DNA of 63,890 nt, counting the filler, from Sluysia triapertura (Eukaryota), in the NCBI GenBank assembly GCA_046118255.1. It is 5 parts of 5 records of this genome, joined end to end, with 100 filler letters (N's around TTAATTAATTAA, not from the genome) between each part and the next. Parts side by side here need not be neighbours in the genome. Positions count along the whole stretch, not along the records: positions 1 to 11,985 come from JBJNIA010149940.1; positions 12,086 to 28,649 come from JBJNIA010201153.1; positions 28,750 to 40,374 come from JBJNIA010182712.1; positions 40,475 to 52,898 come from JBJNIA010110756.1; positions 52,999 to 63,890 come from JBJNIA010191874.1. One strand, given 5' to 3'. A model generated the notes under the pieces. That model saw only the letters and a list, made by a program, of their open reading frames with translations. It was not told the DNA's origin and made no database searches. The position numbers were made by a program, and so were the translations under genes. This document shows positions 6,841-60,070 of the stretch, piece by piece. Numbering within the stretch: the stretch's first letter is position 1; the number at the start of each line of letters is the position of its first letter.

Positions 6841-7720
6841 TATGGTGGTCAACCCTTAATACTATTAAAATTTTATAAAAGTAACCTTAACATTTTAATA
6901 TTCACACATTATCTTATTTACAATCTTATAACTCACACTTCACATTTACATTCAATACTACCAATTTAAACCAACAAATCCATCAAAAAGACATTACTCG
7001 ATATTCATAATAATCAAACAACACCTTAAATCCATCATTTTCATTACATAACTACTAACACAAAAAACAATAACATTCAAAACAACAAGAAAACAAAACA
7101 CGTATAACAGTGAACTATAACCTTTCAAATATACTAAGAGCTATACTATAATTTATTGTTTCGCACTTACTAAACCACACTCTTCTCAATGTATTTTTTG
7201 TTCGCAATCTCTCAATGTTTAAATGTCGTTTTCAGCCACTCTAACATCCTACATTTTACCACATAACACAAGCATTCTTACCATATAAGATTACGACAAG
7301 TATACGTAAAGATCTTTAGTATAAATATATGCAAATTTTATTTCTCTGTTAATTTAAAATATGTTAAGAATTAAAAGAACGAGACAGAAAGGTCGTGTAT
7401 ACTTATTACAAGAGATTTATGCATTTTGATATTTTTATATAAAAGTAATATTAGGAATAATAACAGCTTTATCATTATTATTATTATCAAAAATTTCATA
7501 AATTTGAATTAATTTGGTAAAAATTGTTACTAACATCACCAGTGTTGACATTGTTCATTACTGTCCACACATTTATGTCAACACTGATGATGATTAATCA
7601 TTCACAGCAGTCATTTTTGTTGTAATTCTAAATTTTGAATCAATGTTACTGGCCATCCAACCAGAACCAAGTTTATAAATTTCCAGACAAACAATTCTGG
7701 TTGGATGACTAATTACCGAT
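6841..7720. mobile_element. LTR-like hairpin-cassette copy B (inverted relative to the other copies)
   Basis: Terminus tatggtggtcaacc (reverse of GGTTGGCCACTACA-like), a CA-skewed tract, the conserved motif at ~7385-7430, and hairpins 7534-7592 (18-bp arms) and 7654-7707 (13-bp arms). Confidence 0.75.
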
Positions 7721-7802
7721 CATCTAACACAAAAATAAAAGTTTTAATAATAAATAAAATTTAAACATTAAAAATTTTGAGAAAAAATTTTACAAAATTA
7801 TC

Positions 7803-8880
7803 ATGGACAAGTTGCATTCTCAAATTCTGGATCAGCAAAATAACTATTATCAAAACGAAGTTCAAAAGTAACAATATAACTACAAGTTTTACATATAATA
7901 CGTCAAATGTCATGGAAATTAGTTAATGTTTTAGTGATATTATTATCATACAATCCTACAATAAAACATTTCGGTTTAATGATTCAGGATATTCACACAT
8001 TGTGCCAAAACTTATTACCTTTGCTAGGATTCTATTAGAAGTTAAACGCTTAAAAATTTATAAATCATTATCCTCATCGAATGATCATAATCATCTCAGC
8101 TACTATAATGTATCTACTGGGAATCATGATATAATTCAATAATTAAAATTTGAGTCAAATGTAGAACTAATTAAGTTAATCGTTGTATCGGTTCAAATTT
8201 CAAATATTTTATGGCGATTATACTTTCTCAAATGTTACAAATACATAATCACAATAGAACCAACTATTATATCAGAACTACTAATAAATTCAGCTTACGC
8301 TAGTCGATATAATACCACAAATCTGCAAGTGTACTTATTAGGTTGCATTCAGAGATCAGAAAGTCTAAGTGATCCAACAAATATGTTTTAATCAAAGATA
8401 ATGAAGACAGTCAATTTTGTATCAAGTGGTTCACATGCCCAATTCATTCTATCATCATTATTCATTTAGGTGTATTAAATTTAAAGTCATGTTTACACAA
8501 AAAATACAAATGCTTGAACCAAAATTAAAGGTTAATAAATCACCCAAGGTGATACTGATTCTAGAAGTCACGAAATATTTAACTACGTTCATATATACCT
8601 GAAATTGCGACGTAAGGATTGCATATAAGTAAATTTAATGATCAAAGCTGTGTAAGGAATACGCTCATCTCTTCATTTTTTATACCGGTAGAACTACTAA
8701 CAAACTTGTTCCATACTCAACCATTGGCGAATCGACATTACGAAGATGACAAACCTGATATCTACTACTTGAGACCAATGAGTGTATTACTAAAATTTTT
8801 CATAAATTAGATGTGCAATTTTTTGTTTAGACGATCGATCAGAAGATGGGATTCGTGATGCGCATGGAGATGCGGCGACA
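7803..8880 (+). pseudogene. disrupted intronless cargo ORF of copy B
   Basis: ATG at 7803, ~95 bp after the hairpins, on the strand predicted by the inverted orientation. About 1 kb of coding-like sequence broken by stops (short ORFs 8417-8602 and 8619-8810). Confidence 0.45.
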
Positions 8881-9769
8881 AAATTAATATTTCATAGTTT
8901 AATAAAAAATAAAATCCTTAGAGTTTTTTACACGTCTTTTGTTCATTCATATAAATTGTATTTTGATAAATTATATAATAATTTTAAATATTTAATACTT
9001 AGCAAAATATTAATAATAACCGAGTGTATGTAAAGTTAATAATCAAATATCATAATTTTTTGTACAAAAGAATTTTGAATTTAATAAATGATTTTAATAA
9101 TTTGAAAGTAAATTTTGTTAATTTCATAAAAATCACACTAAATTGGTGTCACAAGACAATAATACTACTAAAATATGTAAGATGTTTTTCACAATTTTCT
9201 AAACTGACTTATAAATATGTTTCGATATTTTGAACACATTACCGATAATTTGCAATTACGTTTTTGGACCATTTAGCTAATAATTTAATGTTATTAATTA
9301 AATTTTTCGGAGCATCTTTGGAGTATAGGGGACCATATTTCTGATTTTTGGTAGATATTTTGGATGATAATTTAACATTGTTAACTAAGTCCTTTTTTAT
9401 ACTGGTAATTTGTATAATATCTTAATTCATTTAACTTTGTAAAAGAATAATTAACAAAATTTAAATTTTTAATAATTAAAATAGGAGTAGTCTATTAAAT
9501 TCAAAATTGTGAGTGGTGCGCTTTATTTATCATAATTGTAGTTAAGTTATTCTAATTTTGCGTAAATATATTTTAGTGCATCAATAATTAGTGTTGACTT
9601 TGAAACTAAAGGGGAGAATTTGGTCCAGGGTAAAAATTTGAAATTCTCATAAGGCACTTCCACCTCTTACTTCAGAGACAAGTTTTAGGGTTTTGAGTTC
9701 TGTACACCAATTTAGGGTGTGAGCTATTTTAAGTAATGAAACAGAATAATTGTTACTGGTATTTTAAAA

Positions 9770-11179
9770 TATAAACCTCAAAACCCCTAATGTTGTTTTA
9801 TTATTTAGGTCGATTATAGCTTTGAACCTACAATATCTATGAGATGATATTATAATTTGGCTTATTGAATTACAAATTCTAAATCTTATTATCAAGTTAT
9901 TGAGGGCAACATAAAATATCCTATCTCTTTTTGTTTCAAGATATTCGAGGTTTTTATTACCATGTATACACATCTAATAATTAACGAATTATTGAACACG
10001 CTGAGAATAATATTTATTAAAATATCAAAAATTTTAATAAAATAGTTAATAAATTTAGGAACTGAATGGACTATTCTATCATTTGTCAAAATTCTTCGCA
10101 CTGCATCACTAGGTATTGTGTTGTACCTACCTATACATAAATCTAAAATATTTACCCAATTAAAATAAGAGTAAAAATAAATAAAAATTTACTAGAGATG
10201 TTTTCTTAAGGTTAAAGTCTTCATCTCCTTCTTTATCTTCCGCTGTGACAAAAACCAAATTTCCAATTTGTTTGTTTCTAGTTGTGTATTGGTTTCTGCG
10301 AAAGTGTAATCCGAAATGACGATGAACTTGTGTCTTTATTATACTCATTACGTTGAAGTTTAAAAAGTTTTGGAAGACTGTGACATGTCTTTGAATGAAT
10401 GGATGTTGTTGATTAATTTTATTAGCTGGTCGTAATATTCCGCTCAAGGAACTAATATCGTCTTTTAGAATCACGTATAAAACGCACCTTACCACAATAC
10501 TAGTCCGTTCATCCGTTTCTACTTTTAATCGTTTAATTCTATATGCATTTTGAACAAGTTTATCTACTTCAACATTTAATCGTTTAATTATATACATATC
10601 TTCAACAAGTTTATATACTTTTACATTTAATTGTTTAATTATATACATTTGTTCAACAAGTTTATATTCCGCTATTTGAGTCACTTGACCCATAATACGC
10701 TCACTAAGTGGAAAACGTACAATATCGTAATGACAATGCTTTATAACTTCATTCGGAGCATCATTTATGATTACATCATGTAGTTTACTAACTAGCATCA
10801 GTTGAAGAGTTACCAAATCATTTTTTGTTACAATTTTATAATAATCTGGATTGTTAACATGATTAAGACTGCCTATTAATTCACGTATTTCTTTAATACA
10901 ACTTGGACATTGTGACGACATTTCGTTTTGGCCATAATCGTCTTTGATTGTTACTTTTATAATCCTTTTAAGCTCTTGTAAATAACACTCATCACTTACT
11001 ACAACACATCTGTTTTCCATGATTTTTAATGACGATTTTTGTTTCATGTGAACTATACGATAGCCGGATTCTGCTCCCATTACTTTTGAATATTTGTAGC
11101 GTCTAGTTACATTAGCACTAATAAACATTGTTTCAGACATAATGCATAAAAATGAATTTACAATAAAAGAACTATACAT
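9770..11179 (-). CDS. intronless cargo ORF of copy C (339 aa plus probable frameshifted C-terminus), unknown product
   Basis: Longest ORF in the window (10160-11179). It contains a 3x 17-aa tandem repeat. Coding-like frames continue to ~9770. Confidence 0.65.
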
Positions 11180-11222
11180 GTTTTATTTTTAGCTAGTTGT
11201 TGATAAAAGAGTATTATTATTG

Positions 11223-11985
11223 GTCATACAATCAGGCCTTTAAAAAAGAATGATGCATAAAAATAGGTCCTGATTGGGTGACGTGTGCAATACTTGTAGT
11301 TATAATTAAAAAATTATTACTTACTGATGATTGACCATCATCAGTGTTGGCACTTTAATAAGAATTGTGATACATAGTGTCAACACTGGTGATGATAGTG
11401 ACCAGTTTATATTGATTAAAATTAAATGAATTTATTTAAATAAAATAATTTAATGATTGATAATAATATTATTAATTATAATTTTGTTATTATTATTATC
11501 AATAAAACGCATAAAATTTCTTTAAAATATTACATACATGATCTTTTCTTTCTTTCTATTTATTTTTCTCGACATATGAAATTAAAATAAATAAAAATTG
11601 ATAAAATTGAACGAAATACGGACGGTAACATGGCACACTATGCTCGAATTATCGTCGTTATTTCGTTGTGTGACATTGAATTGCTTAACTGCATTGTATT
11701 TTGCTTAAATACTTGAAAGGTTTTGGTATGATGAAATAAATAAAAAATGTATTTGGGACTAAATTCCTGAGTAAGAATTGTTTTAAAGAATTGATAAATA
11801 CACTTAATCTTTGAAGTTATAATAATTGAAGTCTTGAATTGAATAAGAGAGTGTTAGAATAAGTTCTTCAATGTTAATTGAAGTTTATGTTTGAAGAAAG
11901 GATTTATGTATTGAAATATAATGGTTAAAAGGTTTATTGATAAGGTTGTAATTCATTGAATTTAAAAGGGGAATTACAATATAAC
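11223..11985. mobile_element. LTR-like hairpin-cassette copy C (runs into gap)
   Basis: Hairpins 11223-11282 (caatcagg/cctgattg core) and 11336-11394 (19-bp arms, two G:T pairs). Conserved motif at ~11505-11550. Segment 11880-11985 aligns with 47100-47205. Confidence 0.8.
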
Positions 11986-26059: not shown

Positions 26060-27180
26060 GAACTTTGTCGGAATATGAATCATGAAAATAAAACCTTCTA
26101 TAATAATGTTAACAGCTAAAGAATAGCTTGGCATTACAAAGACCTATATAAGGTGTATAGACCTTTGAGGTTCTTAATCTTGAGATCATCTAATACCTTA
26201 TTAACCTTTAGGTATTCTTGAAAACTTGATAAAGCATTTAAAGACCTTAAAATCTTTCAAATATTTGAGAAATAAAATCATTATTATTGGTATTAATAAT
26301 AAATTTAGTAATAATTAACATGAAGAAGTAGAAAAATGAATCAGAGAAGTGAAGGTGAAAACATCTAGAGCCCCCTGACTGCCTTATAAACTGCTAAATA
26401 ACTTTAAAATCTTAATAAACCTTTAAGCATAAAATGAGATTAAGTCTAAAAATAGATTAATTAATTAAAATCTTAATTAACTTAAATAAGAAAAAGTACG
26501 TTTTTTCTGAACAACTTTTGAATGCGAAAGGCTGCCTTGAATTTGAAACTGTTTATGTATTTGTTTTGAAATGACCTTTTGATGAAAGTATGGTTTGACC
26601 CAGTTCATACAAGGAAAGCCTAAATATTGAACAAAGTCAAATTTTAATTAATTTTTAATTATGGAATGTTGAATTTTTTTATAGTTGGAATGATGAAAAT
26701 ATAATGAATGGAATACGAGGAGAATCTAGAAGTTAGCTTGAAATGTTTGTGAGATTCTTTGTTAGAGAATAAGAATGTGAAACATTTTCCAAAAGGAAAT
26801 TGGGTGTGAAAAATTAAAAATCAATTAAATTCTAAAAATTGAAATTTAATACATTTTTTTTATACATGCTAACATTATTGATTGTTATTTTAATGTGAGA
26901 ATTAATTTAAATAAAAATAGATTGAGTACAGTAAAAAAGAATGATGGTTAGTAATAAATCAAATTTTTGTGTTTTGTACCAAATGAAGTTTGACAGAACG
27001 TACCATGTAATTGTCAATGTTGTCGGTCTGATTCTCAAAGAGGTTTTGATAATTTATATGAAAAAGTGTTTGATTGTGAAACTCAGGATTCATTGGATGC
27101 TGAAAGAGTATAAAATGAAAATTTTAAACATTTTACAACACACTCAAAAAACCACAATATCAAGATCCATGTTTGGGTGA
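26060..27180 (+). repeat. dispersed repeat family 2 (~1.1 kb), copy 1
   Basis: Colinear with the reverse complement of 55285-56460 and with 40090-40374 (e.g. aataattaacatgaagaagtagaaaaa, tttgacaga.cgt.ccatgta.ttgtcaa, gattctcaaagaggttt). Confidence 0.85.
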
Positions 27181-29783
27181 ATATTAGTTTATTTGTTATT
27201 ATTTTAATTATTTTAATTAATATTTGGGGATTTCCACTTAATTTTTCTTTATTATTGTTATTAAAATAAAATTTTTGGAAAACTTTTAATTATTTTGTTG
27301 TTGGTTATTTTAATTTTATTGCTTTTGACAAAATAAAATTTTTCGGAGGAAGTTTAATTTTGTTAAGCCAATTATTTGATTATTTTAAGCCATTGATAAA
27401 ATGATTTTTGGGTGGATTTGGGTGTCCAAATTATTTTATAAAATTTAATTGTTTTTAAGTTAGGTTAAAATTATCTAAAAATATTTAAGCATTATCACTA
27501 GTTTCTTTGGATGGATTGTTGTGTCCTTAATATTATTATAAACATTATTGTTAATCTTATAATTTTAGTCATTTTTATTATTGTTAAGTAGAGACTTAAA
27601 CTAGCAATTTGTATTTGATTTTTGTAATTATTAAATTACTGAGTTGTTTGATTTGATTTAAAAACTTAATTTTGGGTTGAATAAATATCATCGTCAAAAT
27701 AGGAAAAATATAGTGAGTACTGAAATTACTGAAATAAATTGATACTGATTTATCGTAACTGATAATTTTCAAAGACGCAACATTATTGCTTTGATTTTCT
27801 TAACCTAACCTGCAGCAAAATAAATTTTAACAGCGTCCTGATACAGTATACGACTTATGACATGAAGTGGCATACCTGTAACTAAAACGTCAATTCGTAA
27901 AATATTATTGCTAGCTTGTTCTTCTGAAAATTCCCTTAATTTGCTTTAATTGGTAATCTACCGCACGTTTTAATTCAATAATGTAATTATTTTTACTTAG
28001 AATGTATTTATTTTTAATTGATAGAAAGTTTGAGGTTCTTAATATAATTATTGTCTTCCTCATAAATTCAACTAGTAACGTTTTTTATTATATTCTCTTA
28101 ATTAAAATGCTTCAATGCTTCGTTAATTTGAAAATTGATTATAAATTCTAAAATCAACCGAATAAGGAAACACAATGTTGATATAATTTTAAAATATTAT
28201 TAACAAATTATGATTACCTAATTATATACTAATCGTTCTTCATAATAAAACTCAACTAGAGAAAAATAAATACATTTCAGCAATTTAAAATTTAATTTTT
28301 ATAAATTGACAATATTTTAGAAATAATTTTACTACTCAGAAAATCGGGAATCAAAAGTTTTAAATAAAATTGATTTTTAATATATTTTGAAATTTTGACT
28401 TCTAAAGTTAAAACTACCTTAAATAGAAACAACTGATTAAATCTGATTGCTGAACTGGATGTTGAACTGATTTAATGCTTAATGTTGAACTGTTTCCCTG
28501 AATTAAATTAGCATGTAAATTTCCACAAAATTTTTGAAAATTGTTTATTTCAAGTATTTAAACTATTTAACTCCTTAACTCGCACACTCGAATTAACTCG
28601 AGCGAGGTAAACCTGCAGAAATGAGCACACTCGAGTTAATTTGATTAATNNNNNNNNNNNNNNNNNNNNNNNNNNNNNNNNNNNNNNNNNNNNTTAATTA
28701 ATTAANNNNNNNNNNNNNNNNNNNNNNNNNNNNNNNNNNNNNNNNNNNNCCGTCCATCGAAACAAGATTTCAAGCTACCTAAATAATATTTTCGATCAAT
28801 CATAGGCAAAACACGGAAACCTAAGGTGCACCACGCGTTGTCGAGTGGTACATTTCTTAATATTATCTCGGAAATGATACAATACTCGATCTGCAGCTGT
28901 AATTTGTCAACCTCGAATAAAATTTGATGATTATTTGAATTTATTAAAATTATTAATTCGTACAGTTTGACATTTCACGTGTTTCAAATTTATGGAAACT
29001 TAATTATTATTATTATTATCAATAATAGATGTATATAATCAAAACATAATCGTAACTTGTTCATTTGCTGTAACTTATAATGTTTTAAATGATGATTTAT
29101 TTGTGTGTTTTGATTTTAATCAATCGATAGTTATGCTAAGTCACAGTTTATGCAAATGAAAAACACGTAAGTTGGTATTCAAGATGACTAAACTTATTCA
29201 TGAAGATTACTATCAAAAGTTATCTATTACCAAAAATCCTATATATTTATTGGTGAATACATCTTTACAGAGAGCTGATATACCTATATAATATTGTGTC
29301 GAGAAATGTGGGTACATCAACGGTGGTTTTGATGTACGTTGTTTGTATGTGAAAGATGTACCAAACAAATCATTTTGACAAATAGTCGTGATGCCACAGA
29401 AGTTAAGCCCCGTGAAAAAGGTATCGAAACATTATGAATTCTACACGGATATCATAATAATTCATCGTTATTCGATTATTTTGAGTTTTATGAAAAGCAA
29501 GAACATACTGGTATTTCAATGACCGCTGCACGAACACCACCAGCAGCAGCATCACTAGTTCCAGGATCAAATTACTTAACTGCACATTCACATTATTTGG
29601 ATCAAATATTTCCATAGATAAGAAATATATTAATCACTCGAAATTGATTTCATTGGTTCATTTTTCTTTTCCAATTATATCAATTGGTCCTCCGTGCATA
29701 CCAATGCCGCCACCAATAAATATAGAAATTACATTATTACAATAACAATATACAATTTTATAGTATTCAAGATTTATTAAAAA

Positions 29784-30329
29784 GTGGTTTATATGAAAAA
29801 AGCTATGGATGATGCTAGAAAATATTTGTTATTTCCACAAACTCGTAATAGAATTTTGACTGAGATAGTAGAAACTTCCATAGGAGAGTCAGGTGATAAA
29901 CCAAATTATGAAAGGTTATTATTAGCGGATCATTTTGAAAGAGCAGCGAAAGGAGCAATGAAAATGATGTGGTGGAAGTTTTCTACTTTTGGTCAAACAA
30001 TGGCTGGATTTATGGGAGTATATTATATAATTATTATAATAAAGTTTCTTCAGCAAATATTATCTACCTATGAGTTATATAAAATTATTGGCTTCAGTTG
30101 GAAACTAATTTTCGGTATTGTTCCTTGGCTAGCTAGACCATTTATTTCAAAAGGTCTGCATGGAAGACTTTCTAAATTAAAAAAACATAATACAGTAGAA
30201 AATGAAAATATAGAATTGAAGACTCGATTATCGAATGAAACAAAATCCAAAAAGAATAAAAATCCTAAAATCTACCCAAAGATTGCATATGAATTGTACA
30301 ATGCCATAAATCCTCACAGCAATATATAA
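29784..30329 (+). pseudogene. chuvirus-type glycoprotein (retrotransposon env-like) C-terminal fragment
   Basis: LLFPQTRNRILTEI...WWKFSTFGQTMAGFMGVYYIIIIIKF...LYKIIGFSWKLIFGI follows the membrane-proximal pattern 'MFP.E....L..I ... W..F..FG...AG..G ... GWS..L' of Chuviridae G proteins and their retroelement-borne copies. Confidence 0.75.
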
Positions 30330-31049
30330 ACGTAATGTCTGAACAAGTAAAAACTTCATTAACTACTAATAGTACGAATGTTAAATTACTGGAAGATTAT
30401 GAAATATTTAAGAAAAAGGTAAATTTGTTTGTCAGATATATAATAATGAATGATTTATTTTAAGCGCTTTTGAGTACTTTGCAGTAGAAATGATTTAATA
30501 ATGTATGATTTAATAACACATGAAAAAAAGTACACTCTATATTGCATATCAAACATTTATTATACAATAAATACAAATGTTAATGGAAATATTTTAAAAC
30601 GTCATTGGAATAGTGTCTCTAAAAATTAAGTAACAATATAAATTTTACTCATATTTTTATATCGAAATTATATCTAAACCTTTTCAGTACCTTTTTTCGA
30701 AATTCTATTTTGTTTTGTTTAAATGTTTTAATTAATTTATTCGAAAAGCGACTGATGGTAAGTTATATTAGTTGTGCGTTATCTTAATTTTATTTTAGAC
30801 AAGAAAACCGACGATATTAACTGAGGTTAATTAAAGATTATTTCATGTAATTCTTATAATGCCAAAAGCTGACAAAGATAAATTAATAACATTCTGACAT
30901 TAAAACCTAAGGTGCAGCTGGCGTGGTAGGGTGGTACATTTCTTAATATTGTCTCGGAAATGATGCCACCGCAGCTGCAGACTAGGAGTTCCTCGGCTGG
31001 AAAACACAAAGAGAGGAATAAATTACTCCAAACAATTCGATGTCTATTG

Positions 31050-32163: not shown

Positions 32164-32196
32164 CCAAATTTGTGGTTTTCACATCCAAGAAATTAT
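32164..32196 (+). pseudogene. RPS29: 40S ribosomal protein S29 N-terminal fragment
   Basis: PNLWFSHPRNY matches the RPS29 N-terminus (LxWSHPRxY/F). Confidence 0.7.
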
Positions 32197-40089: not shown

Positions 40090-40374
40090 CGTCTATAATA
40101 ATGTTAATACTTTGGAGTTCCAAAGACTTATATAAGGGTTTGAGATCTTGAGATGGACTTGAAGAACTTGAAGACCCTAGTGACCTTTGAGTATTTTGAA
40201 ATATCGATAAGCATTTAAGATCTTTTAGTAACTTCATAAAGTGTATAAAATCTTTAAAATGCTTGAGAAATAAAATCTTTGTTCAAAATAATAAAGTTAA
40301 GTTTAACATAGTAATAATTAACATGAAGAAGTAGAAAAAGGAATCAGAGAGGTGAAGGTGAAAACACCCAGAGC
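40090..40374 (+). repeat. repeat family 2, copy 2 (runs into linker)
   Basis: Matches 26130-26372. Confidence 0.8.
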
Positions 40375-44151: not shown

Positions 44152-44261
44152 GGATAAATTTTTTGTGTTTCTATTTTTACAAAGCTATTAAATTTTTTGA
44201 AAAATAATTTATGAAAAATTTTTACCTATTAAAATTTTTGTACTACAACATCAACCTAATT

Positions 44262-45080
44262 GTCCATCCAACCAGAAGACGTATAAAATTAATGATCAGA
44301 ATAACTCTGATTGGACGACCACTATTAAATATTACAAACTAATTAATTGAACGATGAATCACCATCAATGTTGACGTGAATTTATATACAGTAATCAGTA
44401 ATGTCAACATTGATGGTGGTAGTTACTGATTTACAAAGTACATAAAATTAATAAAGATGTTAATATTAACAATAACAATACTAATATTATTATTATCAAT
44501 ATTAATTAAAAATAAAATATATAAAATACATAAATTCTTTGTGGAAAGGTCTGTACATAAACTTTCTTTGATAATCTTTAATTTCTCAACTTATTTAAAG
44601 TTAGAGGTAAAGAAGGAACATGATATTTTATGATTGACTTTCAAGTTTTGATGCTACATCATCCTTGTGTTAAAATAGTATTACAAGCTGAAATGCTATT
44701 GAAATGTAATTGATTGAGGCCTAAATACCTTAGAATATTATTCTTGTGTTTTGAGATGAGAGATACAATGCTTTAGATATGGGGTTATGAGTTTGAATTG
44801 TGACGAGTAATGTCTTAAAAGACACCATTTTATGGGTGTTGTTATTGTTGAGGCGAGTGTTGAATAGTAGTTTGGAAGAAGTTTTAAAACTAAAGTTTTA
44901 AACTTAATACTTATCTTTAAGGTATAAGCTGGATTTGAGGACGTATTATTATTTTTATTATGAATATTCAGATTAAATAATATCTTATAATAAATTTTAG
45001 AGTTTCTCAAATAACAATATATATTAAACCTATATTTGAGGTTATTTTTTACAATATAATTAGTTTTTATACCATTGATT
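44262..45080. mobile_element. LTR-like hairpin-cassette copy D1
   Basis: Hairpins 44265-44317 and 44360-44418 (perfect 16-bp arms caccatcaatgttgac/gtcaacattgatggtg), conserved motif at ~44522-44570, and a GT-rich tract. Confidence 0.8.
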
Positions 45081-45227
45081 AAGGTTCTAATAAAAAAATA
45101 TAAACTAAAATTAAGATCCTATTACAAATAAAAATGTGAATATGATTTTTAATTTGCCAAATTTTGATGAATTTGAAAAAAAGAGTAACTGCACCACAAC
45201 GACCATTATACTCGATTCGCCGCCATT

Positions 45228-46460
45228 TCACGATCCTATAATTTTCTTGATTAGAGAATTGATGTTCAATAAAAATTCATAAAAATTGTCTGCGACCGTA
45301 CCTGTGTCTTTCAGTAATGACAAGATATATTGATGACTTCCTTGTATAGTTGTAGTCTTCAGTTCATAATCGTATCCTGTTTCATCTATCAATATGTAGG
45401 TCATACCAGGATGACTCAAAATCGATTGGACCACAATTTGACTAACTCGAAATAAGTTTAGTATTCGGTCGAACAAATTACTGGAAACTACTCGTAATAA
45501 ATATCGACTTATATTCTGATTGACTGCATTAATGTAGTGGTTATCATGTTCAGCTTCGACTAATTTGCGAAGGTCTGTCAGCATATTTCCAACTTTATCA
45601 AATACGAAATCATTATTCTTGAATAGTCTACCTTTTACTGTTGGAGTTTTAATTAAAGTGGATTTTATTCTTAAATGCAAAAATTCATATTGATGTAGCA
45701 ATAATTTAATTATCGGATCAATGGAACTCATTTTTAATGTCACATTTGAATATTGACTACATCGCATTAAACTAGACCCATTTCTTTCATGATAATATGC
45801 TAAAACTGAAAAACGATTATTAACATGCATTCTGGATGATATAAAAATATTTTCATGACTAACACAAAATGGAATCATAACATATTTACCATAATTGTAA
45901 TTATTAGACCATAACGATTTTGGAAGGTGGGCCCACTTTCCTGATATTAGAGATTTTAAGAATTCATGTTTTGGTTTAAATAGATTCCAACAATTTATAT
46001 TAATCCTGAAAGTTGAATATAAATTGAATACAAATTGAACACAATTGAATACAAATCATCTATCTTATCGCTGTTGATAGCCTTATTTAAAATTAATATT
46101 AGATTGTTTAATTCTTCACATAACTTCTTTGATAAATCCTAACTGTATACTTTAAAATCTTTAGTTCTTGACATAACCGTAAAATCGTTAACAATTTTTA
46201 CACTATCAATAGTTCGCAATAGCGAAGAAAATTCTTTATCTTTTTGTTCTGTATCAATTATCATCATATAATGAATAGAATGACATAAAACGCCAGTTAA
46301 GACATGCGTTGAAAACTGCATTAATCTTGAATCAATATTAATGCATGGTGTAATAAAATCATTATTCATTTTAACATTTGAGTCCAAAGAAAATCTTAAT
46401 TTTAATTTTTTTGGTTTGTATACAAAATTGCTAATTGTATCAGCAAATTTTCACTGTCTA
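45228..46460 (-). pseudogene. intronless myotubularin-related (MTMR9-like) pseudophosphatase cargo of copy D2
   Basis: PH-GRAM-like GVLCHSIHYMMII...LLRTIDSVK...TKDFKVY, then CWNLFKPKHEF, RFSVLAYYHERNGSSLMRCSQ and a Cys-less P-loop region GMTYILIDETGYDYEL, all in myotubularin order. One stop at 46139 and one frameshift at ~46030. Confidence 0.8.
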
Positions 46461-46538
46461 TATTTTTTAATTTTTTGTCTGGAAAAAATTTTGGTTCTAG
46501 CCACAATACTAGTATAATATAGTCTCTAATTCTGTCTG

Positions 46539-47677
46539 CCCAATCAGAGTATTTTCAATGATGTTCAGCACTAATCTCTGATTGGGTCATAAATAAATTG
46601 ATAAAAATTAATTTTTACTACTGACCGTCATCACTAGTGTCATTGAAATGACATTTTTTAGTTACATAAAGAGTACTGATGACGGTAGCAACTATTAGAT
46701 TAAATTTTTAAAATTAAAATTTAATATATAATTAATGACAATATTAACAATAACAATAATAACAGGAATAATAATAATAATAATAATAATAACAATGTGA
46801 TTATTGTCATTATTATTATTGTTAACAATTAAAATTTACATGAATCTTTTGTACAATATTCCACACGATCTTTTTCTTTGTATTTTTGTCTTTATATATA
46901 TACATGAGATAAAAAGGAATAAGACAAATGTTGTACTGTGAAGGAACAACAATAACTAAGTATATAATGCATCATTTGTAGTTGTTGCTTCACAGTATGA
47001 TAATGAAATCTTTAAAGTTATTTAAGATTTGTTTTGAAAGATGTAATGGTTTAGGTTGTAAGTAAAATGAAGAATGTTAGAATAGTTTATTGAAACTTAT
47101 TGAAGATTCATAGTTTGAAAACAAGATTTATGCATTGGATAGAATGGTTTGAAATACTTAATGAAAGGTTGAAGTTATTTTAATTTTAAAAGATGCTTAC
47201 AAAATAAATTTTAATATATTATTATGTTATTGCGAATAATTGTGAATAATGAATATGTGTATATGAAGTGGAATTAGGTTGGTGTTGTTGATTAAGGTTT
47301 TAGATGGAAATGATGTATGTTTCTAAGGTACTTGTTGACGTTGTTGAATAATGCTGTTATGTTTATGGTTTGTGAAGTTTATATTGTGATTGTGGTTTGT
47401 TTGTTGAAATATTTTATGAATGAATGTTGTGAATTATTCGAGGTTAAATGTCGAAGTTTGTTGTGTTGTGGATGGTTGAAATGTTAGTTGCATTGTTGAT
47501 ATATGTGAGTTGATGAGGTGTTGTAATTATTGAATGTTATTTTATGGTGTTTGTGTTGGTGAAGTTCGATAGTAAAAAGTGTGATTATTTTAAAATTTGA
47601 ATTTTAGTGAAATTTAGTTTGTGAATATTATATGTAAAATTTTGATTAATTTTAAATTATGAGTGTTGGCCACTACA
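46539..47677. mobile_element. LTR-like hairpin-cassette copy D2
   Basis: Hairpins 46539-46586 (cccaatcagag/ctctgattggg) and 46624-46686 (accgtcatca/tgatgacggt). Motif at 46830-46880. GT-rich tract ending gttggccactaCA at 47677. Confidence 0.8.
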
Positions 47678-50531: not shown

Positions 50532-50792
50532 TTATAAAATAAAAGATATACTTTCAAATAAAAATAAAAAAAATATTTTATTGTGATTAAAAATAAAATG
50601 AATTTAATTATTTTTAATTATCAAATATACTAATAAATTTTCCTACCAGGAAAGTTGAAGCAGATAATATTTTAAAATCGCTCTAGGATGAATAAAAGAT
50701 TTACAAAATTAATTTTCCCTTTTCTGTGGGATACTGTTTAAACCAAAATTTTCTAAAAAGTATTAATACAAATACAAATCTTATAATTTCAG

Positions 50793-51178
50793 ACTGAATT
50801 TCCAATAGCATATATTATTGTATTTTACAAACAATCACACCAATTTCTTCGTTTATTCCAAGCCATTTATCGTCCATGGAATGTACACTGTATTCACGTA
50901 GATGCCAAATCGGATGTACAAAATATAAAATTAGCTAAACGAATAGTTAAAACATTTTCTAATGTAATATTACCAGAACGATTTATAAATGTGTATTATT
51001 CAAAAATGAGTGTATTGGAACAAGAATTGATTTGTATGAGAGCTTTATTGAAATACACTAAAGTAAAGTGGAAATACGTTATTAACTTAACTGGAGAAGA
51101 ATGGCCGTTGAAGACAAATTTAGAATTGGTACGAATTTTAAAAATAATTAACGGTTCTAATTTGACTGAAAAGTTACA
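50793..51178 (+). CDS. exon of a core-2/I-branching beta-1,6-N-acetylglucosaminyltransferase (GT14)
   Basis: After tttcag: EFPIAYII..RLFQAIYRPWNVHCIHVDAKS...SVLEQELICMRALL...WKYVINLTGEEWPLKTNLELVRILK. The 3' donor position is approximate. Confidence 0.92.
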
Positions 51179-52142
51179 GTTAGTCTATTGGTATTATCAT
51201 TACGTACAAAATAAATGTTAGGGACCCCACCTGTAGTCTAGATTTATCTATAGGATGTTTCTGAATATAGGTTAAACTAAACTTACTATTACTATTATTA
51301 TTATTATTACTATTACTATTATTATTATTATCATTATTATTATTATATTCAAAATAAAATAAAACAAAAAAATTACAATTAGTAATAAAACTATTATATT
51401 TATATACTAAGTAATAATGATAATAAAATATACTGCATCTGTTCCAAAATATGATATACATTTCTAAAATGCTTATCTAAAAAAATGTTTCTTTTTTAAA
51501 GACATATTTTTCAGGTTTAATTTTCATATACAACCAAAAAATTAATCCGCAATTTGAATATATTTAAATTTAAGGTAATTTGAATATCATCCATTATGTC
51601 TGAATATGAGAGTGATATTAATAACGAAGATGAGTTGACGAAAACATATTTTTAGTAACCCTGTTATGTAATGAAGAAGTAATAAAAGTAATTTTTGAAT
51701 GTTAACATTTGTGACAAATCCTAGTATTTAATTAAACTGAGAATTAAAGTCTATTAAATCCATATTTTGGAACAAAGTAAGAAAAACCTGTCATTATTGT
51801 TAATTTTTTATTTTAATGAGATTTTATTGCTAACATTAAATTAACATTAAAAATTAGATAATTTATATGTAACCAATTTCTTTAAGATAGAGTAACTTAC
51901 GAAATCTTGCTACAAGATAATGGATTGGATTCATAATGTAGTAAACTGAAATTTGTTTCGTACGAATGATACATGTCTTATCCAAGATAAAGATAATCTT
52001 GCATAAATAAACGTTTGTTAAAATCGTTCATATTTGATTTATGATTCAAATAATTGTTTTCAAAGAATAAAGGTTTGTTAGAAGAATCGTTTAAGTTTGT
52101 GTTTTGTAGTGACAATTTTAATTTTTGTTCTTAGTATTTATC

Positions 52143-52456: not shown

Positions 52457-53118
52457 TATTTATACGCAAATCGTTGAGTGTTATTTGTTTTTCAATTAAA
52501 TGTTAGTATTTGAATTATTATCATTATTTTCGATTTGCGATGAGACTTGTGCTGCCGTGAGTGGTCTGACAGTAAAAATTATTTTTGTAAATTTTATTTC
52601 AAATTTTAATAATGATAAATTGCTCAAGTTTATCATAATATTTAAATCAATAAAACAATTTGATAATTTTATCATATTTCTTATTAAGAAAATAATTTCA
52701 AAATAAAAACCACGTTAGCATCACTTTTAAAAATACTATTGAACAATTTAGGCTATTTAATATGTAATAAAATAAGATAAAAAGTAGAGTTTTCAACCGT
52801 CCCGGTTTTTCCATGTTCTTTAACTGATTCAAAATATATTTATCCGGCGCCAATAAACTTGCGAAAAAAATTTTGAAAACATATTTGATGCGTCATACNN
52901 NNNNNNNNNNNNNNNNNNNNNNNNNNNNNNNNNNNNNNNNNNTTAATTAATTAANNNNNNNNNNNNNNNNNNNNNNNNNNNNNNNNNNNNNNNNNNNNAT
53001 TATTTGGTTTTTGCTTTTAATTTGATTTTCTTTTTAAAACATTTAATTTTAGAAAGAATAATTATTATTATTAGTTATTAAGAAAATTATTGATATTTGA
53101 TATGGAGAGTATATAAAC

Positions 53119-53277
53119 TGTTAGACTTCGTAAAATGGACTAACCGGGGATCGAACCCGGGACCATCGCTGCGCAGTTCGAATGCTCTACCATTGAGCTA
53201 TCAGCCCGTCTAACAATTTCATTTTCAATATATTCAATTATACTACTTGGCACTTTTTAGGCCTTTTTTACCCAACA
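53119..53277. mobile_element. 159-bp TG..CA solo-LTR-like element containing a tRNA-Ala-derived sequence, copy 1
   Basis: Ends TGTT...AACA with a 4-bp TSD aaac/aaac. Near-identical to 58903-59063. Confidence 0.85.
53136..53207 (-). tRNA. tRNA-Ala(TGC)-derived pseudo-tRNA
   Basis: GGGCTGA TA GCTC AATGGTA GAGC A ... TGC ... CCGGG TTCGATC CCCGG TTAGTCC A. A and B boxes are intact, with a G3:U70 pair and discriminator A. The anticodon stem is mispaired. Confidence 0.7.
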
Positions 53278-54882
53278 AAACAATTGATTTATTTTTGGAG
53301 TTAATTAAATTAATATCTATTTAATTTAAATAATATTTTGAAAGATAACTCAACAAACATGGACAACATAAAAATTTAAAAGTAAACAGAATAATAATTA
53401 CGATACAATTTTTATTGAAAGATGTTTTCTCAAACAAAATTTGTTCAATTAATTTGTTTATTACACAATTTTGATGTACATTTATCGGATTACAATCATG
53501 AGTGAATTGGGTGGTTTAGAATATTTTTATGATCATTATGTTTCAATAACACGTATGCAAAAAATATTTATTTTTACATCGTACATGTCAATTAAAGATG
53601 TTTATAAAAAGTATCATACTCGACTTTGATGAGATAGATAATTTAAAAATTAGTTATATTGTTCACGGCAAGCAAATAAAAGATAGTAGATCAAAAATGG
53701 ATGTGGTGTATTGAATTATTGTCAAGACCAGAATGATTATCCAGTAAATATAAAAATTGGTAAGCCAAAGTTAACTACAAATGAAAAATTAATTTTAGTT
53801 AGTAAGTTTCATGAATTGATTGAAGTATCACCGAAAATTATAAGCCTTTTGAATCATAGAAGTAATAAAATTTATGTTAGAGTAGTGCAAGTAAAAAAAC
53901 ATTAGTACAAACAGTCTGACTGAACGATTCTATACACCTCAATCTAAACAATTTAGTTTAAATCATGTTTATTCTTCGAACTATAAACTGACGAAGGAAA
54001 ATACTAGTATTCAAAGATTAATTACAACAGTTGATGATCAAGTTATATAAATTTTTATTAATATATTTTTAGCTTTTCACCAATTAGTTATTACAAATAT
54101 AGTAGATGTTGTGACAAATATAGTAAGATCATTAAAGACAGACGTGTCAATTGATAAGTTTTTCTCTAGTGGTTCTAAACCTTTTCATATAAATCCACAG
54201 AGTTATTCTAATGAAGACAAACACTACAAGGATGCTATTTGTTTACATGAAACTGCACCAACTGGTGAATGTTCAAAATATGGTAAAAAAGTCAATATTG
54301 TCACAGATTCTACGAATTCAAAGATAGTCTCGGTATCCAACAGATTTTAACGAATACTATGATCGAATAAATGCTCTTTTATCAAGTTTGGCAATGATAC
54401 CATTTGATATCAGTTATTCAAAAAGATTCTAAAGTAATTTTTCAATTTATTTTTATTTATGCTGATATGAATCAATTATCATATTTGTATTTCTTTAGTA
54501 ATGTCTTCAAATATTTCTCATGGCATATTCAGAATTGTCAAAACAGTTTAATAGAAAAGTTAACTTATGTTTAGATTTGATAAAAATAAATAAGTTTAAT
54601 TCTTGTCTTCACCTTTTAGTAGATCTCCAAAAATTTGAATTTAATTCAATAATAATGATTTTAATAAAATATAATATAAAAATAAATTTCAATTTTCGAA
54701 TTTGATTTTTAATAAAATTAAGTTAACATCATTAATGAAAATTTTAAAAATACAATACGATTACAATAAAATTGTTAAGTAACAATAACTTCAAAGGAAG
54801 ACCTAACACTAAATTCTAAAGATAAATCACTTAGTATTTTGATAAGTAAAATTGTGTAGGAATATTTCTTGTAAAAAGTACT

Positions 54883-55284: not shown

Positions 55285-56460
55285 CCCTGTGCATGGATCT
55301 TCATTTGTTGACAACCTTGATATCGTTGCGGAGTGATATTACTATTGTGCGTAAAAATTTTAAATTCTTTATACTTTCTCATCATCCAATCAATTCACAA
55401 TCTCACAACAAAACACACTCTCATACCAATCATCCAAACCTCTTTGAGAATCAAACCGACAATAACAACTTTGACAACTACATGGCACGGTCTGTCAAAC
55501 TTTATTAGGGACAAAACATAAAAATCTGATTTATTATCAACTATCATTTCCTTTTACTCTACTCAGTCTATTTTTACTTAAATTACTCCTCACATTAAAA
55601 TAACAATCATCAATACTGTCAACATACATTAAAATAATGAATTTAATTTTCTATTTTTCACACCCAATTTTCTAATGAAAAATGTTTTAAGGTTTCTATT
55701 CTCAAACGAACCATTTTACAAACATTTCGAGTTCACTCATACATTCTCCTTTTTCATAGCAATCATCTCATATTCGATTCATCACATTTGCATCACTCTA
55801 AATATTAAAAATTCAGCATTCCATAATTAAAAATTAATTAAAATTTGACTTTGCTCAATATTAAAGCTTTTCTTGCATGAACTCGGTCAAACCATACCTT
55901 CATCGAAAGGTCTTTTCAAAACAAATACATACGCTATTTTAAGTTTCACATAGAATTCGCATTCAAGTTATTCACTTTTTGTGAATAATTTTTTCTTAAT
56001 TAAGTTAATTAAGATTTTTAATTAATTAATCTATCTTTAGACTTAATTTTATTTTATGTTTAAAGTCTATTTTGTAATATAAAAGGCATTCAGGAGGCTC
56101 TAGATGTTTTTAACTTCTAGATGTTTTTCTACTTCTTCATGTTAATTATTATCATACTAGATTTATTTTTAATACCAATAACAATGATTTTATTTGTCAA
56201 ATATTTTAAAGATTTTAAATACCTTATAAGATTACTTGAAGACCTTAGATGATTATCACAGTTTAAAGAATACTTAAAGGTTAATAAAGTCTCAGACGAC
56301 CTCAAGATTCACAATCTCAAAGGTACTTTAATGCCTTCCAAGGTTTTCCAAGTCCACTTCAAGCTTCCACGATGTCTCAACACCTCATATAGGTCATTGA
56401 AACTCTAAGGTATGCACATTACTATAGATGCTTTCATTTTCATGATTCTTATTTCAACAA
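55285..56460 (-). repeat. repeat family 2, copy 3
   Basis: Reverse complement is colinear with 26060-27180. Confidence 0.85.
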
Positions 56461-57596
56461 TGTTTATGTTGTGTATTATTAATACTCTTATTTTCCAAAA
56501 TTATTAAATTAAAACTCAGTAATTAAATAAATTCAAAATCTGGGCATATTATTTATATTACCACAAGATTACAACTAAAATATTCTTTATAACAACAAAG
56601 ATACAAATTATTTATAATAACAATATAAATTATTCCTCAATGACAAATATTAACCAGGGTTGACACAACCTACTTAGATTTTCGCACCCGTATTAATACA
56701 AAATATGCTCAATATAAAATAAATTACAAACCTTAAATCCTCTAGCTCTAAATATTTATGTTAATTAATTACTAAATAATAAGCCTTAATAACAGATGAA
56801 TCAAAGCAACGTCCCTCAGCTATAAAGTTTTGTTTTCTTAACTCTTGCCTCTGGCGTTTCTACTTCTAATTTTTTGCATAAATGTAACTGCTTATAAAGC
56901 AGTTTTATGATTCTGTAAGAAATTAAATTTAGAAATTGAACAAGATGGAAATTAAAGCTGTCTATTCTCTTTTAGTCGGCAATAAGCCGACCAATTTCGC
57001 TGATTAAATTTCGAGAGCAATTTCCGTCTGTGTTCAAATTCATTCTCAATTTAATTATCCAAAGATGATGGGATTTGTAGTAAACAATGCCCTGATCTTC
57101 TTAATATCATCTAATTAAAATTTAATATTATTTTTACATTGCTACTATACTAATAACGTAATTTGTCAACTTAATTGAATGATAAATTTATTTCTCATAG
57201 GATCGACGAAGCTATATCCGGATACTATTTTGGTTTTGGTAAACTTCGAATTTATCAATTACAATAATACTAATTACAAATAATATAGTAAAAAGATAAT
57301 TATAACATTAAAATCATGACTGGTAGCTTATTTTTAAATGCCGCGGTGTTAATTATCAAATAATTGTTATTGTTGTGGTATAAGTTTATATTTAAAGTCG
57401 ATAACTTTTAAATTGAAATAAATTTTTACGTTTTTTTCTATTATTTTTACATTAGAATTAAAATCATAATATTCGTTTTTAAATTTAATTAATTGGTAAT
57501 CATTTTTAACTTTAAATGAATAAAAAACAGTAATATCTATTATACTAAAATTTAAAATTTTATTGATAGCTAAATTTGAAATTCTTTTCTTGTACA

Positions 57597-59101
57597 TCAC
57601 TTCCTTGAGATGTCTCGTCTCGTAAGCAAACTTTCCACGTTTCTAAAAAATAATAAAGAATAATAAAATACATTCATAAAAGTATACGTACGGTTAAAAT
57701 AAGAAATTATGATTACTTTTGAGTTATGATATTTGTTTTTGTCCAAATATATTTCTTTTAATGACGAAACGAGTTGTTGAATTCTTTGATCATGGTTTGT
57801 TAAGCGTGGCATCCAAGCGAAGTTATCCATGAGTTCAACTGTATTGTGTGCGTACAAACAGTTACTACCATTTCTTATATATTTTCCATCTAGAGTTGTA
57901 GCATACAGACACCAACCAGACTTGAAGTGTCGTGATTCATCATCCAGATCTAATCGTATCATTCGAGCGCCGGTAGTAGAAGCATCAGTTTGAACGTCAA
58001 TGAGTATACTGCCGTTGAGTGGAAATTTTAGAGGATTCCAATTTATAATTTCTTCAATCATTTCCGGTGTCACTAATAATTTCAATAATTCAAATTGACA
58101 CATTTGCAATCGATTAAGTTGAATTCGGTTTTCAATTTCGCACATTATGAAGTCGTATTGTAAATTTTTCAATGTCACATTTGTACCACGTTTATCAAAC
58201 AAATAACGTATAATAAATAAGTCAATATTACTTAACTTAAAAAGCTTGTGAATAATTTCTATTTCGTTTTCATTATCAATAATTAATCTTACACAAGTAG
58301 TACTTTGAGCATCATTTTTTTGCAAGTTTACATAAAACTCACAAAATCGTTTTCCCTTAGTTTCAAAATTATTTTCTATTAAACAAATATAAGAAAACAA
58401 ATTTACTTCAAACATTTGCTTTAATATATCACATGCATGTTTATCTTTAATAATTTTACTTACTTCGACCCAATAATAATATTTTTTAGACTATCGGCAT
58501 TTTGTTTGATGTAAGATAAAATTTCTTCAACATGTGATTCAGATTGTTCCGAAATTCTTCTAGAAAATCTAAAACATCGTAAAATTCTTAAATCACTTCG
58601 ATTGACATTGTTTCCAACAAAAGGGATAATATTATTTTCTAAATCTTTTATGCCATCAAAGTGATCATAATTAAAAATAATAGTTAAATCACGTTTTTCG
58701 GCTTTTATTTTCGAATTTAACTTGTGCACTGTGGCCATCAGTCGTAGAGTAGTTAATTCAAAATTTTCTTTATCATCAATTCTTTGAGTTATTGTAACGT
58801 GTGATTCAACATTCGAAAAGCGTTGAAATTGATGTTCTTCTTCTTCGGTCATTAATCGAAGAGGTAATAAATAATTAGTATAAGAAATCCCATTAATACT
58901 ACTGTTAGACTTCGTAAAATGGACTGATTGGGGATCGAACCCGGGACCATCGTCTGCACAATCGATGCTTTACCACCGAGTTATCAGACCCGTCTAACAA
59001 TTTCATTTTTTTAAATATATTCAATTATACTACTTGGCACTTTTCAGGCCTTTTACCCCAACACTACTCATTTCAGGTGTGCTTTCATAACTTGACGACA
59101 T
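57597..59101 (-). pseudogene. intronless cargo ORF of copy E (possible OGFr-like C-terminal half), disrupted by an insertion and one frameshift
   Basis: ORFs 58460-58852 and 57597-58415 join across one frameshift. Removing the 58903-59063 insert and one TSD extends the frame to an ATG at 59101 (MSSSYESTPEMSSINGISYTNYLLPLRLMTEEE). Confidence 0.65.
58903..59063. mobile_element. tRNA-containing TG..CA element, copy 2
   Basis: Ends TGTT...AACA with TSD ctac/ctac. Pseudo-tRNA at 58920-58991 on the minus strand. Confidence 0.85.
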
Positions 59102-59211
59102 TTTGTTAATAACTAAGAATGTATTTAATTTGAAAACTATATTTTTATTATAATGAAAGTGCAAAAGCTGACAATTAGCTATCTGATGATAAATCTTGTG
59201 CATTTCAGTAG

Positions 59212-60070
59212 CTGCTCAATCACAACACAAAAAGTGATAATTGATAATTTTAATTGAGCAGTCAGTAAAATGTTGAGTAACATGGAAAAATAGTACATGT
59301 AATGAACTGTCATCAGTCGACAATTAGTAAAAGAACACCAAATGATTTCAAATGCCTATCGACTGATGGCAGGCTAACTAGCAAATAAATTTTTGTATGT
59401 TGTAAATACAGCCACTATCAGTAGTGACAATAAATTGTAATTATGAATTAGTGATGTCACCACTGGTAGTGGTAGTTACAAAGTTAATCAATAAAAATGG
59501 TTAATACATAAAATAATAATAATAATGCCATTATTATTAATTTAATTTGCATAAACCTTTTAAATAAAAACAAAATCTTTCTGATGTTTCTTTTTCTATT
59601 TCTTAACATATTTAAGTTTCTTTCGTTAATATAAATGTTTTCAAAACTGAGTGTTAAAAGATTGTAAGCTTGTAATGTTTTGGATTGAATCTAAGATGTA
59701 AATTTGATAGTTTGAGATGTAATTGAGATTTTAATTTTATTAAATGATGCGTAAAAATGTTTTAGTTTAAAAATGTTAATTGATCGTTGAACTGGAGGTG
59801 AAGTTAGGATGTTGAAAACTGTGAATTAAAATGTTTTGCCATATGAAAATTGATTTTAGTGAATCTGAAAGAAATAAAATATAGCAAGGCTTTTAATACA
59901 TTCAAAAAGGTAGTTGTGGTGTGTTAACAATTATACTTATGATGTAATATTATGGAACTATGAATAAAATGTTTCTGGTGAATTTTAAATGTACGTTGTT
60001 AATCTGAAATGAATGTAGTTTTGTGTGATGGTGGAATAAAATTTGTAACAGTTATAGGTTGGCCACTATA
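59212..60070. mobile_element. LTR-like hairpin-cassette copy E (three hairpins)
   Basis: Hairpins 59212-59261, 59308-59371 and 59412-59472. Motif at ~59545-59595. GT-rich tract ending ggttggccactata at 60070. Confidence 0.8.

Follow-up and report, generated by a model that had tools for sequence, protein, structure and literature searches.

Paired, covarying hairpins in a multicopy gene-carrying element of Sluysia triapertura, a candidate solo LTR

Five hairpin-bearing modules were found in the window, the 63,890 nt stretch of Sluysia triapertura DNA (GCA_046118255.1, parts of five records joined end to end) that was analysed, and they belong to a dispersed multicopy family, as judged from one DNA run. 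The reading that we tentatively favour puts the hairpins, conserved and covarying, in a multicopy element of about 2.5-2.7 kb. This element is probably a solo LTR left by a large LTR retrotransposon, where they would serve as folded RNA signals. That this is a mobile, cargo-bearing element in an animal genome, with scrambled copies of host genes, is close to certain. An action of the hairpins at the RNA level is likely, membership of the LTR type a shade less so, and an element RNA antisense to the cargo is only slightly favoured. The module order is a conserved terminus, a skewed leader, the hairpins and then an intronless cargo ORF (Table 1).

Table 1. Modules, hairpins, cargos and copies in the window
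Feature	Position	Strand	Description
Copy A, tentative member	1290..3160	-	ORF 2218-2892 and tail weakly similar to the Unkempt-like part of E
Copy A hairpin	3055-3103	-	12-bp perfect stem
B module	6839..7750	+	TG terminus, leader, two hairpins
B distal hairpin	7534-7592	+	59 nt; 17/18 pairs Watson-Crick
B second hairpin	7645-7716	+	Inverted-repeat scan
B cargo	7803..8810	+	Heavily decayed reading frame; no family match
C cargo	10160..11182	-	Open 340-aa ORF; no family match
C module	11190..11985	-	Three hairpins; 5' part lost in assembly gap
C distal hairpin	11334-11396	-	63 nt; 18/21 pairs Watson-Crick
C further hairpins	11610-11667 and 11223-11282	-	Inverted-repeat scan
D1 module	44230..45202	-	Begins 26 nt past the stop of the D cargo; no long ORF behind
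D1 second hairpin	44261-44321	-	Inverted-repeat scan
D1 distal hairpin	44358-44420	-	63 nt; 18/20 pairs Watson-Crick
D cargo	45228..46450	-	Intronless myotubularin-like remnant; PF06602 E 7e-12
D2 module	46480..47677	-	TG terminus at 47677, C/A-rich leader, three hairpins
D2 distal hairpin	46624-46686	-	63 nt; outer 10 pairs perfect
D2 further hairpins	46929-47002 and 46539-46586	-	Inverted-repeat scan
Copy F, tentative member	53300..54450	+	Decayed ORF with Unkempt-type finger
Copy E, complete unit	57371..60070	-	2,700 bp; TA..CA ends, 8-bp imperfect inverted match, 5-bp target-site duplication
E cargo	57597..59101	-	Intronless TRNT1-like (CCA-adding enzyme) region, then Unkempt-type CCCH finger
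tRNA-bearing very-high-copy insert in E cargo	58904..59062	-	6-bp target duplication
E proximal hairpin	59201-59272	-	100 nt from ATG at 59101
E second distal-type hairpin	59307-59372	-	Inverted-repeat scan; absent from the sequence-only list
E distal hairpin	59408-59476	-	18/22 pairs Watson-Crick

All of the distal hairpins listed by an earlier, sequence-only reading (B, C, D1, D2 and E) are present, and a de novo inverted-repeat scan recovered B, C, D1 and E. The D2 hairpin fell below the scan threshold and was located by reading the sequence; its inner stem is interrupted by C.C, G.G and G.G mismatches, none of them a wobble. The second distal-type hairpin of E is the sixth copy, the same hairpin type being doubled there as a unit. 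Stems of such quality occur at 28 seed positions in the window and at none in each of six block shuffles, and so are far above chance; folding z-scores for 16 regions, both strands, range from -1.6 to -6.0. Module hairpins are 59-74 nt long, with loops of 21-29 nt in most stems. All six hairpin pairs span 149-183 nt, with linkers of 35-53 nt, and the third hairpins in C and D2 are about 215-240 nt distant. In 10 of 14 module hairpins the strand antisense to the cargo gives the more stable fold, and with flanks included several antisense folds reach 29-41 pairs through the centre; the lower stems vary (15-41 pairs). A covariance model of the six distal hairpins found no additional copy in the window (the next match, E 0.5, was unrelated), a search with the E arm at up to 4 mismatches did not match copy A, and no Rfam family reached its gathering score, the best on a hairpin being MIR827 (27 bits against 65). 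A hammerhead ribozyme was rejected because the core-like word sits in a paired arm and GAAA is not at the right place (by eye), as was a C/D snoRNA, whose box-like words are base-paired within the stem.

Pairing had been said to be kept despite sequence change, and it is. Both sides changed in 8 of 20 pairs across the six distal hairpins (5 of 500 shuffles) and in 8 of 15 pairs across five proximal hairpins (0 of 500 shuffles), counts that come from small samples, with the structure drawn from the same sequences, and in which a shuffle count is not a probability. The proposed drift of the loops was borne out at the level of the family: in copies of E, at 59327-59455 and among 40 of 64 variant rows, 4 of 39 arm positions and 31 of 90 loop or spacer positions are variable (Fisher p=0.005), a contrast that the other 24 rows might alter. 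However, the claimed bias of G:T pairs to the strand antisense to the cargo was not significant, at 8:3 in the distal stems (p=0.23), 18:11 for 13 stems (p=0.26) and 5:7 in the proximal stems alone. The composition of the module on the cargo strand (C about 0.17, G about 0.09) would by itself give a G:T preference of roughly 2:1 for the antisense strand, and the counts are not independent because one wobble (column 19/69) is common to B, C and E. The D1 proximal hairpin has three G:T pairs on the cargo strand, and the mismatch at 59358 in E is private to the copy in the window, another letter making up 96 % of depth. Selection on a folded RNA or ssDNA, as first proposed, has arm symmetry held while loops drift on its side, but not the strand bias, which is non-significant.

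The first 75 nt of the modules are homologous in three of six pairs among B, D1, D2 and E (0 of 500 shuffles); for D1 against D2, which are strongly diverged from each other, this stretch gives z 5.0 (0 of 500). No significant likeness was found between the 3' tails across copies. Of the two tentative members, the tail of copy A matches the Unkempt-like part of E at E 1e-4 (pairwise), and no hairpin module was seen in copy F, which has an assembly gap upstream.

The ends are clearest in copy E. An end and duplication such as those of E are found by chance at 192 of 116,632 start positions (0.16 % per start), depth drops at both sides of the copy, and a unique 1,414-nt contig starts at 60039. 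There are no long TIRs in E beyond 8 bp (z -0.2). A far end with duplication was clean in one of the four termini tested, that of E, and was found for none of B, D1 and D2; the far ends of C (cut by the gap) and F gave no convincing match. It is a weak possibility that D is nested, D1 lying inside D2, with a far end near 43162 (2 mismatches). Summed contig depth, which is not copy number, is 300-2,500 over the cargo, 2,200-9,800 at 59276-60107 and 43-211 in the flanks, with single contigs at 12-20; as many as 49 contigs overlap at a single cargo position and 78 at a single hairpin position. The DNA run behind these depths may itself be what the window was assembled from. Depth is only about 265 at 59068-59275, the proximal part of the copy, so the junction of module and cargo found in E is not universal. 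The tRNA-bearing insert reaches a depth of 5e5-8e5, and its joint runs from 58897 to 59063 with 6 letters in common.

The cargos recognised in E and D are diverged host genes, different ones standing behind one shared module. The E cargo is without the N-terminal catalytic part of the CCA-adding enzyme and is disrupted by an insertion and a frameshift near 58470. It matches CCA-adding enzyme at 38 % over 129 aa (E 4e-18), and five of its six matches are CCA-adding enzymes; the best-ranked match, P0001, was dropped as a repetitive artefact. Its finger matches PF25427 at E 1.6e-5, under the curated cut-off, and that of copy F at E 1.1e-4, so that an Unkempt-type finger recurs in E, F and, weakly, A. 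With TRNT1-like and Unkempt-like parts combined in one frame region, the E cargo is partial and multi-parent. One stop and one frameshift disrupt the D cargo. Introns were presumably lost from the cargos. No relatives were found for the E cargo by word search or in viral contigs, for the D cargo among longer proteins or for the C cargo in metagenome contigs. C and A had no usable Atlas match, PDB sequence searches with both gave nothing significant, and a single-sequence structure model of the C cargo had a pLDDT of 32 and was discarded.

If the copies are solo LTRs with a gene inside, a retroviral-type integrase would have made their ends, template switching would have captured the cargos as mRNA to give partial, intronless, chimeric frames, and recombination between two LTRs would have left single copies. 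The proximal hairpin and the inverted CCAAT-like pair may form a two-way promoter, for cargo mRNA one way and element RNA the other. With its start at the distal hairpin, the latter transcript would extend across AT-rich poly(A) signals and on into a U5-like tail rich in G and T. In transcript processing, packaging or control, it would be the shape and length of the stems that is recognised, and not the sequence of their loops. The ends of E, its 5-bp duplication and the absence of a long TIR count for the LTR type. LTR retrotransposons have TG..CA-type termini, as do E in its 8-bp imperfect TA..CA match and B and D2 in their TG starts, and duplications of 4-6 bp, as found at one of four termini tested. 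The T.G wobble on the antisense strand, the 10 of 14 antisense folds and the G-rich, C-poor tail behind the hairpins on that strand (G 0.19-0.24, C 0.05-0.08) also count for the favoured reading. AATAAA sites weigh little, as the word is common in DNA of 75 % AT. Against this reading count the single clean far end in four, the unlike 3' tails and the lack of gag-pol neighbours; by eye, no copy in the window has a primer-binding site, polypurine tract, second LTR or gag-pol beside it. An initiator-like word lies in the first arm in three of five modules (B, C and E), about 55-70 nt from the CCAAT-like arm (partly by eye), and its absence from the first arm of D1 and D2 counts against an antisense start at the distal hairpin.

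The sequence-only reading had offered, as one option, a TAR- or packaging-like signal of an R region. An LTR-like setting agrees with how copy E ends and with its target duplication, but the non-significant bias speaks for neither RNA nor DNA, and for neither strand. A TAR element needs its bulge and loop to be conserved. In B, C and E the hairpin could plausibly lie where an antisense transcript begins, but the loops vary within and between subfamilies.

The same LTR could run in the cargo direction, which we think improbable. Leader and hairpins would then be U3 and the cargo would lie in R/U5, with a start just behind the CCAAT-like hairpin, which would make every solo LTR an expression cassette complete in itself and put the folded hairpins at the 3' end of the element RNA. 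The first ATG is 44-100 nt behind the proximal hairpin in B, C and E, a normal promoter distance, and the G:T pairs of the D1 proximal hairpin fit as well. The cargo strand is C/A-rich, and because the C/A-rich strand is often the sense strand of Gypsy-like elements this would flip the inferred orientation. However, an R/U5 of about 1.5 kb would be required, and the common wobble and most fold energies favour the opposite strand, although G-rich strands fold better anyway, which weakens the excess of stable antisense folds as an argument.

No more probable is that the inverted repeats work in DNA, either as cruciforms or as paired sites for proteins at a two-way promoter, with repair between the arms, and not selection on RNA, keeping them alike. 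Near-perfect symmetry, the loop lengths, the inverted CCAAT-like words and the non-significant strand bias would all suit this. Arm-to-arm copying would be expected, though, to erase the wobble of B, C and E, which is T.G on the antisense strand and has been kept while adjacent pairs were replaced. Both CCAAT-like arms of B have altered together, with loss of the CCAAT core on both and pairing kept, which fits pairing better than factor binding, and the doubling of the distal hairpin of E as a unit also speaks against the DNA level.

It is likewise unlikely that the two or three hairpins are an element-encoded Pol II precursor of polycistronic microRNAs or endo-siRNAs. Hairpin length, the flanked antisense folds of 29-41 pairs, the third hairpins of C and D2 and the conservation of arms within family E are in its favour, as are the palindromic LTR regions of maize Sireviruses, with possible hairpin small RNAs according to the accessible text of PMC4728375. 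Against it, the two arms do not differ in conservation and pair almost perfectly, would-be seed positions differ between subfamilies, lower stems are inconsistent and no Rfam family reached threshold. A foamy virus-type dumbbell pri-miRNA, which had been put forward, does not fit. In the accessible text of PMC6950176 the viral Pol III dumbbell also has two hairpins in an LTR-like region, measures 111-128 nt and has a terminator, and BFV is also without a B box. The pairs here fail on size (6 of 6 outside that range, at 149-183 nt) and on internal T-runs: a T4+ run lies inside all six pairs on the cargo strand and three on the antisense strand, and of the three antisense pairs free of T-runs, B alone is followed by one within 40 nt. 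The six pairs all lack a B box.

Least probable of these readings is a non-autonomous cut-and-paste unit that does not belong to a retroelement, moved by a Gypsy-like integrase (Ginger/TDD-like) and packing host genes. It would account for a single unit with TG..CA-type ends, its own duplication and no second repeat, and Ginger1 and Ginger2 are described, in the part of PMC2836005 that is accessible, with ends TGTNR and duplications of 4 bp (5 bp in TDD; the one in E is 5 bp). Their TIRs of 40-270 bp are absent from E, however, and the cargos look intronless and chimeric. Helitrons make no target duplication and have a short 3' hairpin before CTRR, and were rejected since E duplicated its target and the hairpins are at least 0.6 kb from the end.

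A further reading, which we consider a long shot, is of an invertebrate retroelement lineage with swappable accessory genes inside the LTR, a two-way promoter, and shape-conserved hairpins as the RNA target of the cargo or as a small-RNA cluster. Its captured host domains (dead CCA-adding enzyme, myotubularin and others) would often be fused to an Unkempt-type RNA-binding finger. If so, control of the Tat/TAR or foamy kind would have arisen independently in a lineage other than the vertebrate retroviruses, or else a single-repeat unit would spread without an internal region. If the copies are LTRs, every solo copy would be a promoter and gene ready for use, with such cassettes scattered genome-wide, and the natural copies, in their hundreds, would provide a rare deep alignment for tests of RNA folding in a transposon.

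That LTR elements capture cargo is already known, whereas here the gene lies inside a single TG..CA-bounded unit and differs between subfamilies. No paper with such an arrangement was found, which is weak evidence of novelty as most subscription journals and Repbase were outside the search. In the accessible text of each source, the known systems compare as follows. LTR-mediated retroposition yields partial, multi-parent retrocopies (Tan et al., PMC5131818); like the E cargo, these and maize Bs1 are partial, intronless, multi-parent chimeras, with amplification continuing, but they sit between two LTRs, whereas E is one module with its own duplication around module and cargo. Retand and Grande likewise bear an accessory gene in antisense orientation close to the 3' LTR, but are plant elements whose ORF lies outside the LTR with mostly one domain (TRP28), whereas here the cargo differs between copies (PMC11963269). 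Sireviruses share fast-changing, hairpin-forming palindromes in the regulatory part of the LTR, but are a plant Copia lineage without a cargo gene (PMC4728375). Planarian Burro and plant Ogre are giant Gypsy-type elements with multi-kb terminal repeats, many copies and captured host domains, but their accessory domains are internal and not in the LTR, and no conserved hairpin pair is described in that text (PMC6431247). Burro env resembles mononegavirus fusion proteins (PMC6431247), and a fragment of that fusion-protein type, perhaps unconnected with the hairpin family, is present at 29781-30329 in the window.

The hairpin-bearing modules B, C, D1, D2 and E mark a family of cargo-bearing, LTR-like elements that looks undescribed. 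Parts of earlier papers describe Gypsy elements of giant size that have long LTRs and have captured domains (PMC6431247), accessory ORFs that are antisense and near the 3' LTR (PMC11963269), and LTR palindromes that form hairpins (PMC4728375). Among the papers listed by a literature search, none described one LTR-like unit whose host cargo can be swapped. The family would be of greater interest were it shown to encode an RNA control system.

The hairpins are real. Those of B, C, D1 and E were recovered by a motif-free scan, which also picked up another distal-type hairpin in E and several neighbouring ones, and the shorter hairpin of D2, in which 10 perfect outer pairs are kept, was identified by reading the sequence. 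Stems are 16-22 pairs long and loops 21-34 nt, and there were 28 seeds of comparable stems in the window versus none in six block shuffles. The window has a G+C content of ~25 %, few long reading frames, five assembly gaps and one N run. On the cargo strand, all five modules share a layout. It opens with a conserved terminus and a C/A-rich leader of 0.5-0.9 kb, and an AT-rich microsatellite tract then precedes the distal hairpin. Next comes the proximal hairpin, which bears an inverted CCAAT-like pair, and a reading frame lies behind it.

When the ends and duplication of copy E, a complete unit, were tested, random starts passed in 192 of 116,632 cases. Copy E has no long TIR, and the far ends of B, D1 and D2 were not found. 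In X1, a single DNA run that contains the E region and is possibly the window's own source, depth was 300-2,500 over the E cargo and 2,200-9,800 where the leader and distal hairpins lie, compared with 43-211 in the flanks of E and 12-20 for single contigs; depth itself is no copy number, and the copies likely number tens to hundreds. A unique X1 contig begins 31 nt inside the E terminus.

The E cargo includes ~290 residues like the CCA-adding enzyme TRNT1, with the N-terminal catalytic part missing; an Unkempt-type CCCH finger comes next. This cargo is disrupted by a frameshift and by a tRNA-bearing insert that is absent from other copies. The D cargo is a broken myotubularin-like frame, the B cargo is decayed, and a search found no relatives of the open 340-aa frame in C. 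The tentative members A and F have Unkempt-like remnants after different N-terminal parts. No introns are apparent in the cargos; the parent genes presumably contain them.

TG..CA ends and a 5-bp duplication without a TIR are suggestive of a retroviral-type integrase, and such an enzyme would have generated the TG..CA-type ends and 5-bp duplication here. Template switching in an LTR particle, as described in part of PMC5131818, fits partial, chimeric, intronless cargo and may have produced it. Because of the end type, the duplication, the lack of a TIR and this fit of the cargo, we read the units as probable solo LTRs that derive from a large element and hold an accessory gene within the LTR.

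Transcription of element RNA would most likely start close to the distal hairpin and run antisense to the cargo, since an initiator-like word lies within the first arm of B, C and E with G/T-rich sequence behind it, and the proximal hairpin region is most likely a two-way promoter. The rival here is an LTR of the opposite orientation. In favour of the antisense strand, the strongest clue is a single T.G pair retained at the equivalent site in B, C and E. A general bias of G:T pairs to the strand antisense to the cargo, proposed in the sequence-only reading, was not demonstrated, with antisense to cargo-strand ratios of 8:3 in distal stems (p 0.23), 18:11 in 13 stems (p 0.26) and 5:7 in proximal stems alone. 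As the module is rich in C and poor in G on the cargo strand, antisense wobbles are favoured without other cause.

The same reading had claimed compensatory arm changes and drifting loops, and both were upheld. Both sides were altered in 8 of 20 pairs, transversions among them, in the distal hairpins (n=6; 5 of 500 shuffles) and in 8 of 15 in the proximal hairpins (n=5; 0 of 500), although these sets are small and the structure was derived from the sequences tested. X1 gives an independent view of arms versus loops. Contigs were aligned at 80 % to 59296-59490, and the comparison used 40 of the 64 variant rows. Within the span of these rows, variation affects 4 of 39 arm positions versus 31 of 90 others (p=0.005). 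Position 59358, among the four variable arm sites, is a mismatch private to the window copy. The stems may be recognised by shape; the rival is symmetry of the arms at the DNA level.

Another rival is a cluster of small-RNA precursors. The foamy virus cassettes described in part of PMC6950176 are Pol III units of 111-128 nt, whereas the hairpin pairs here span 149-183 nt and carry internal T-runs (6 of 6 on one strand, 3 of 6 on the other). A further rival is a packer of Ginger-like type; Ginger elements, according to part of PMC2836005, require long TIRs, unlike copy E.

Positions of copy E and of additional features in the window
Feature	Position	Strand	Remarks
Copy E unit	60070 to 57371	-	TA..CA ends, 8-bp imperfect inverted match, 5-bp duplication
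Repeats within C cargo ORF	10517-10667		Three 51-nt repeats, in frame
Strong hairpin	28588-28644		z -3 to -6 (both hairpins); sequence unrelated to module; module-like geometry (17-bp arms, 23-nt loop); gap adjoins
Strong hairpin	61420-61501		Sequence unrelated to module
tRNA-bearing short repeat	58904-59062, 53117-53290		Summed depth 5e5-8e5; 6-bp target duplication in E
Second repeat family	28750-36500		Many pieces; conserved core between variable inverted arms, e.g. 30906-30986
Fusion glycoprotein fragment	29781-30329		Monjiviricetes-type (PF24664, E 4e-20)
Transferrin-like fragment	34850-35330		Decayed (Pfam E 0.054); within second repeat family
Core-2/I-branching enzyme exon	50787-51221		~50 % identity to named annelid and gastropod proteins
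Core-2/I-branching enzyme exon	63056-63409		
Presumed pogo-like transposase fragment beside copy A, and Tc1/mariner-like remnant	~3180-3500, 4795-5900		Putative, by eye
Further dispersed repeat	26161-27136, 55351-56324, 40172-40374		~1 kb, 74-81 % identity

The similarity of the Core-2/I-branching enzyme exon at 50787-51221 to annelid and gastropod proteins makes a lophotrochozoan animal the likely host. The tRNA-bearing short repeat forms a SINE- or MITE-like family that is very abundant, and the fusion glycoprotein fragment is possibly the env remnant of an LTR element.
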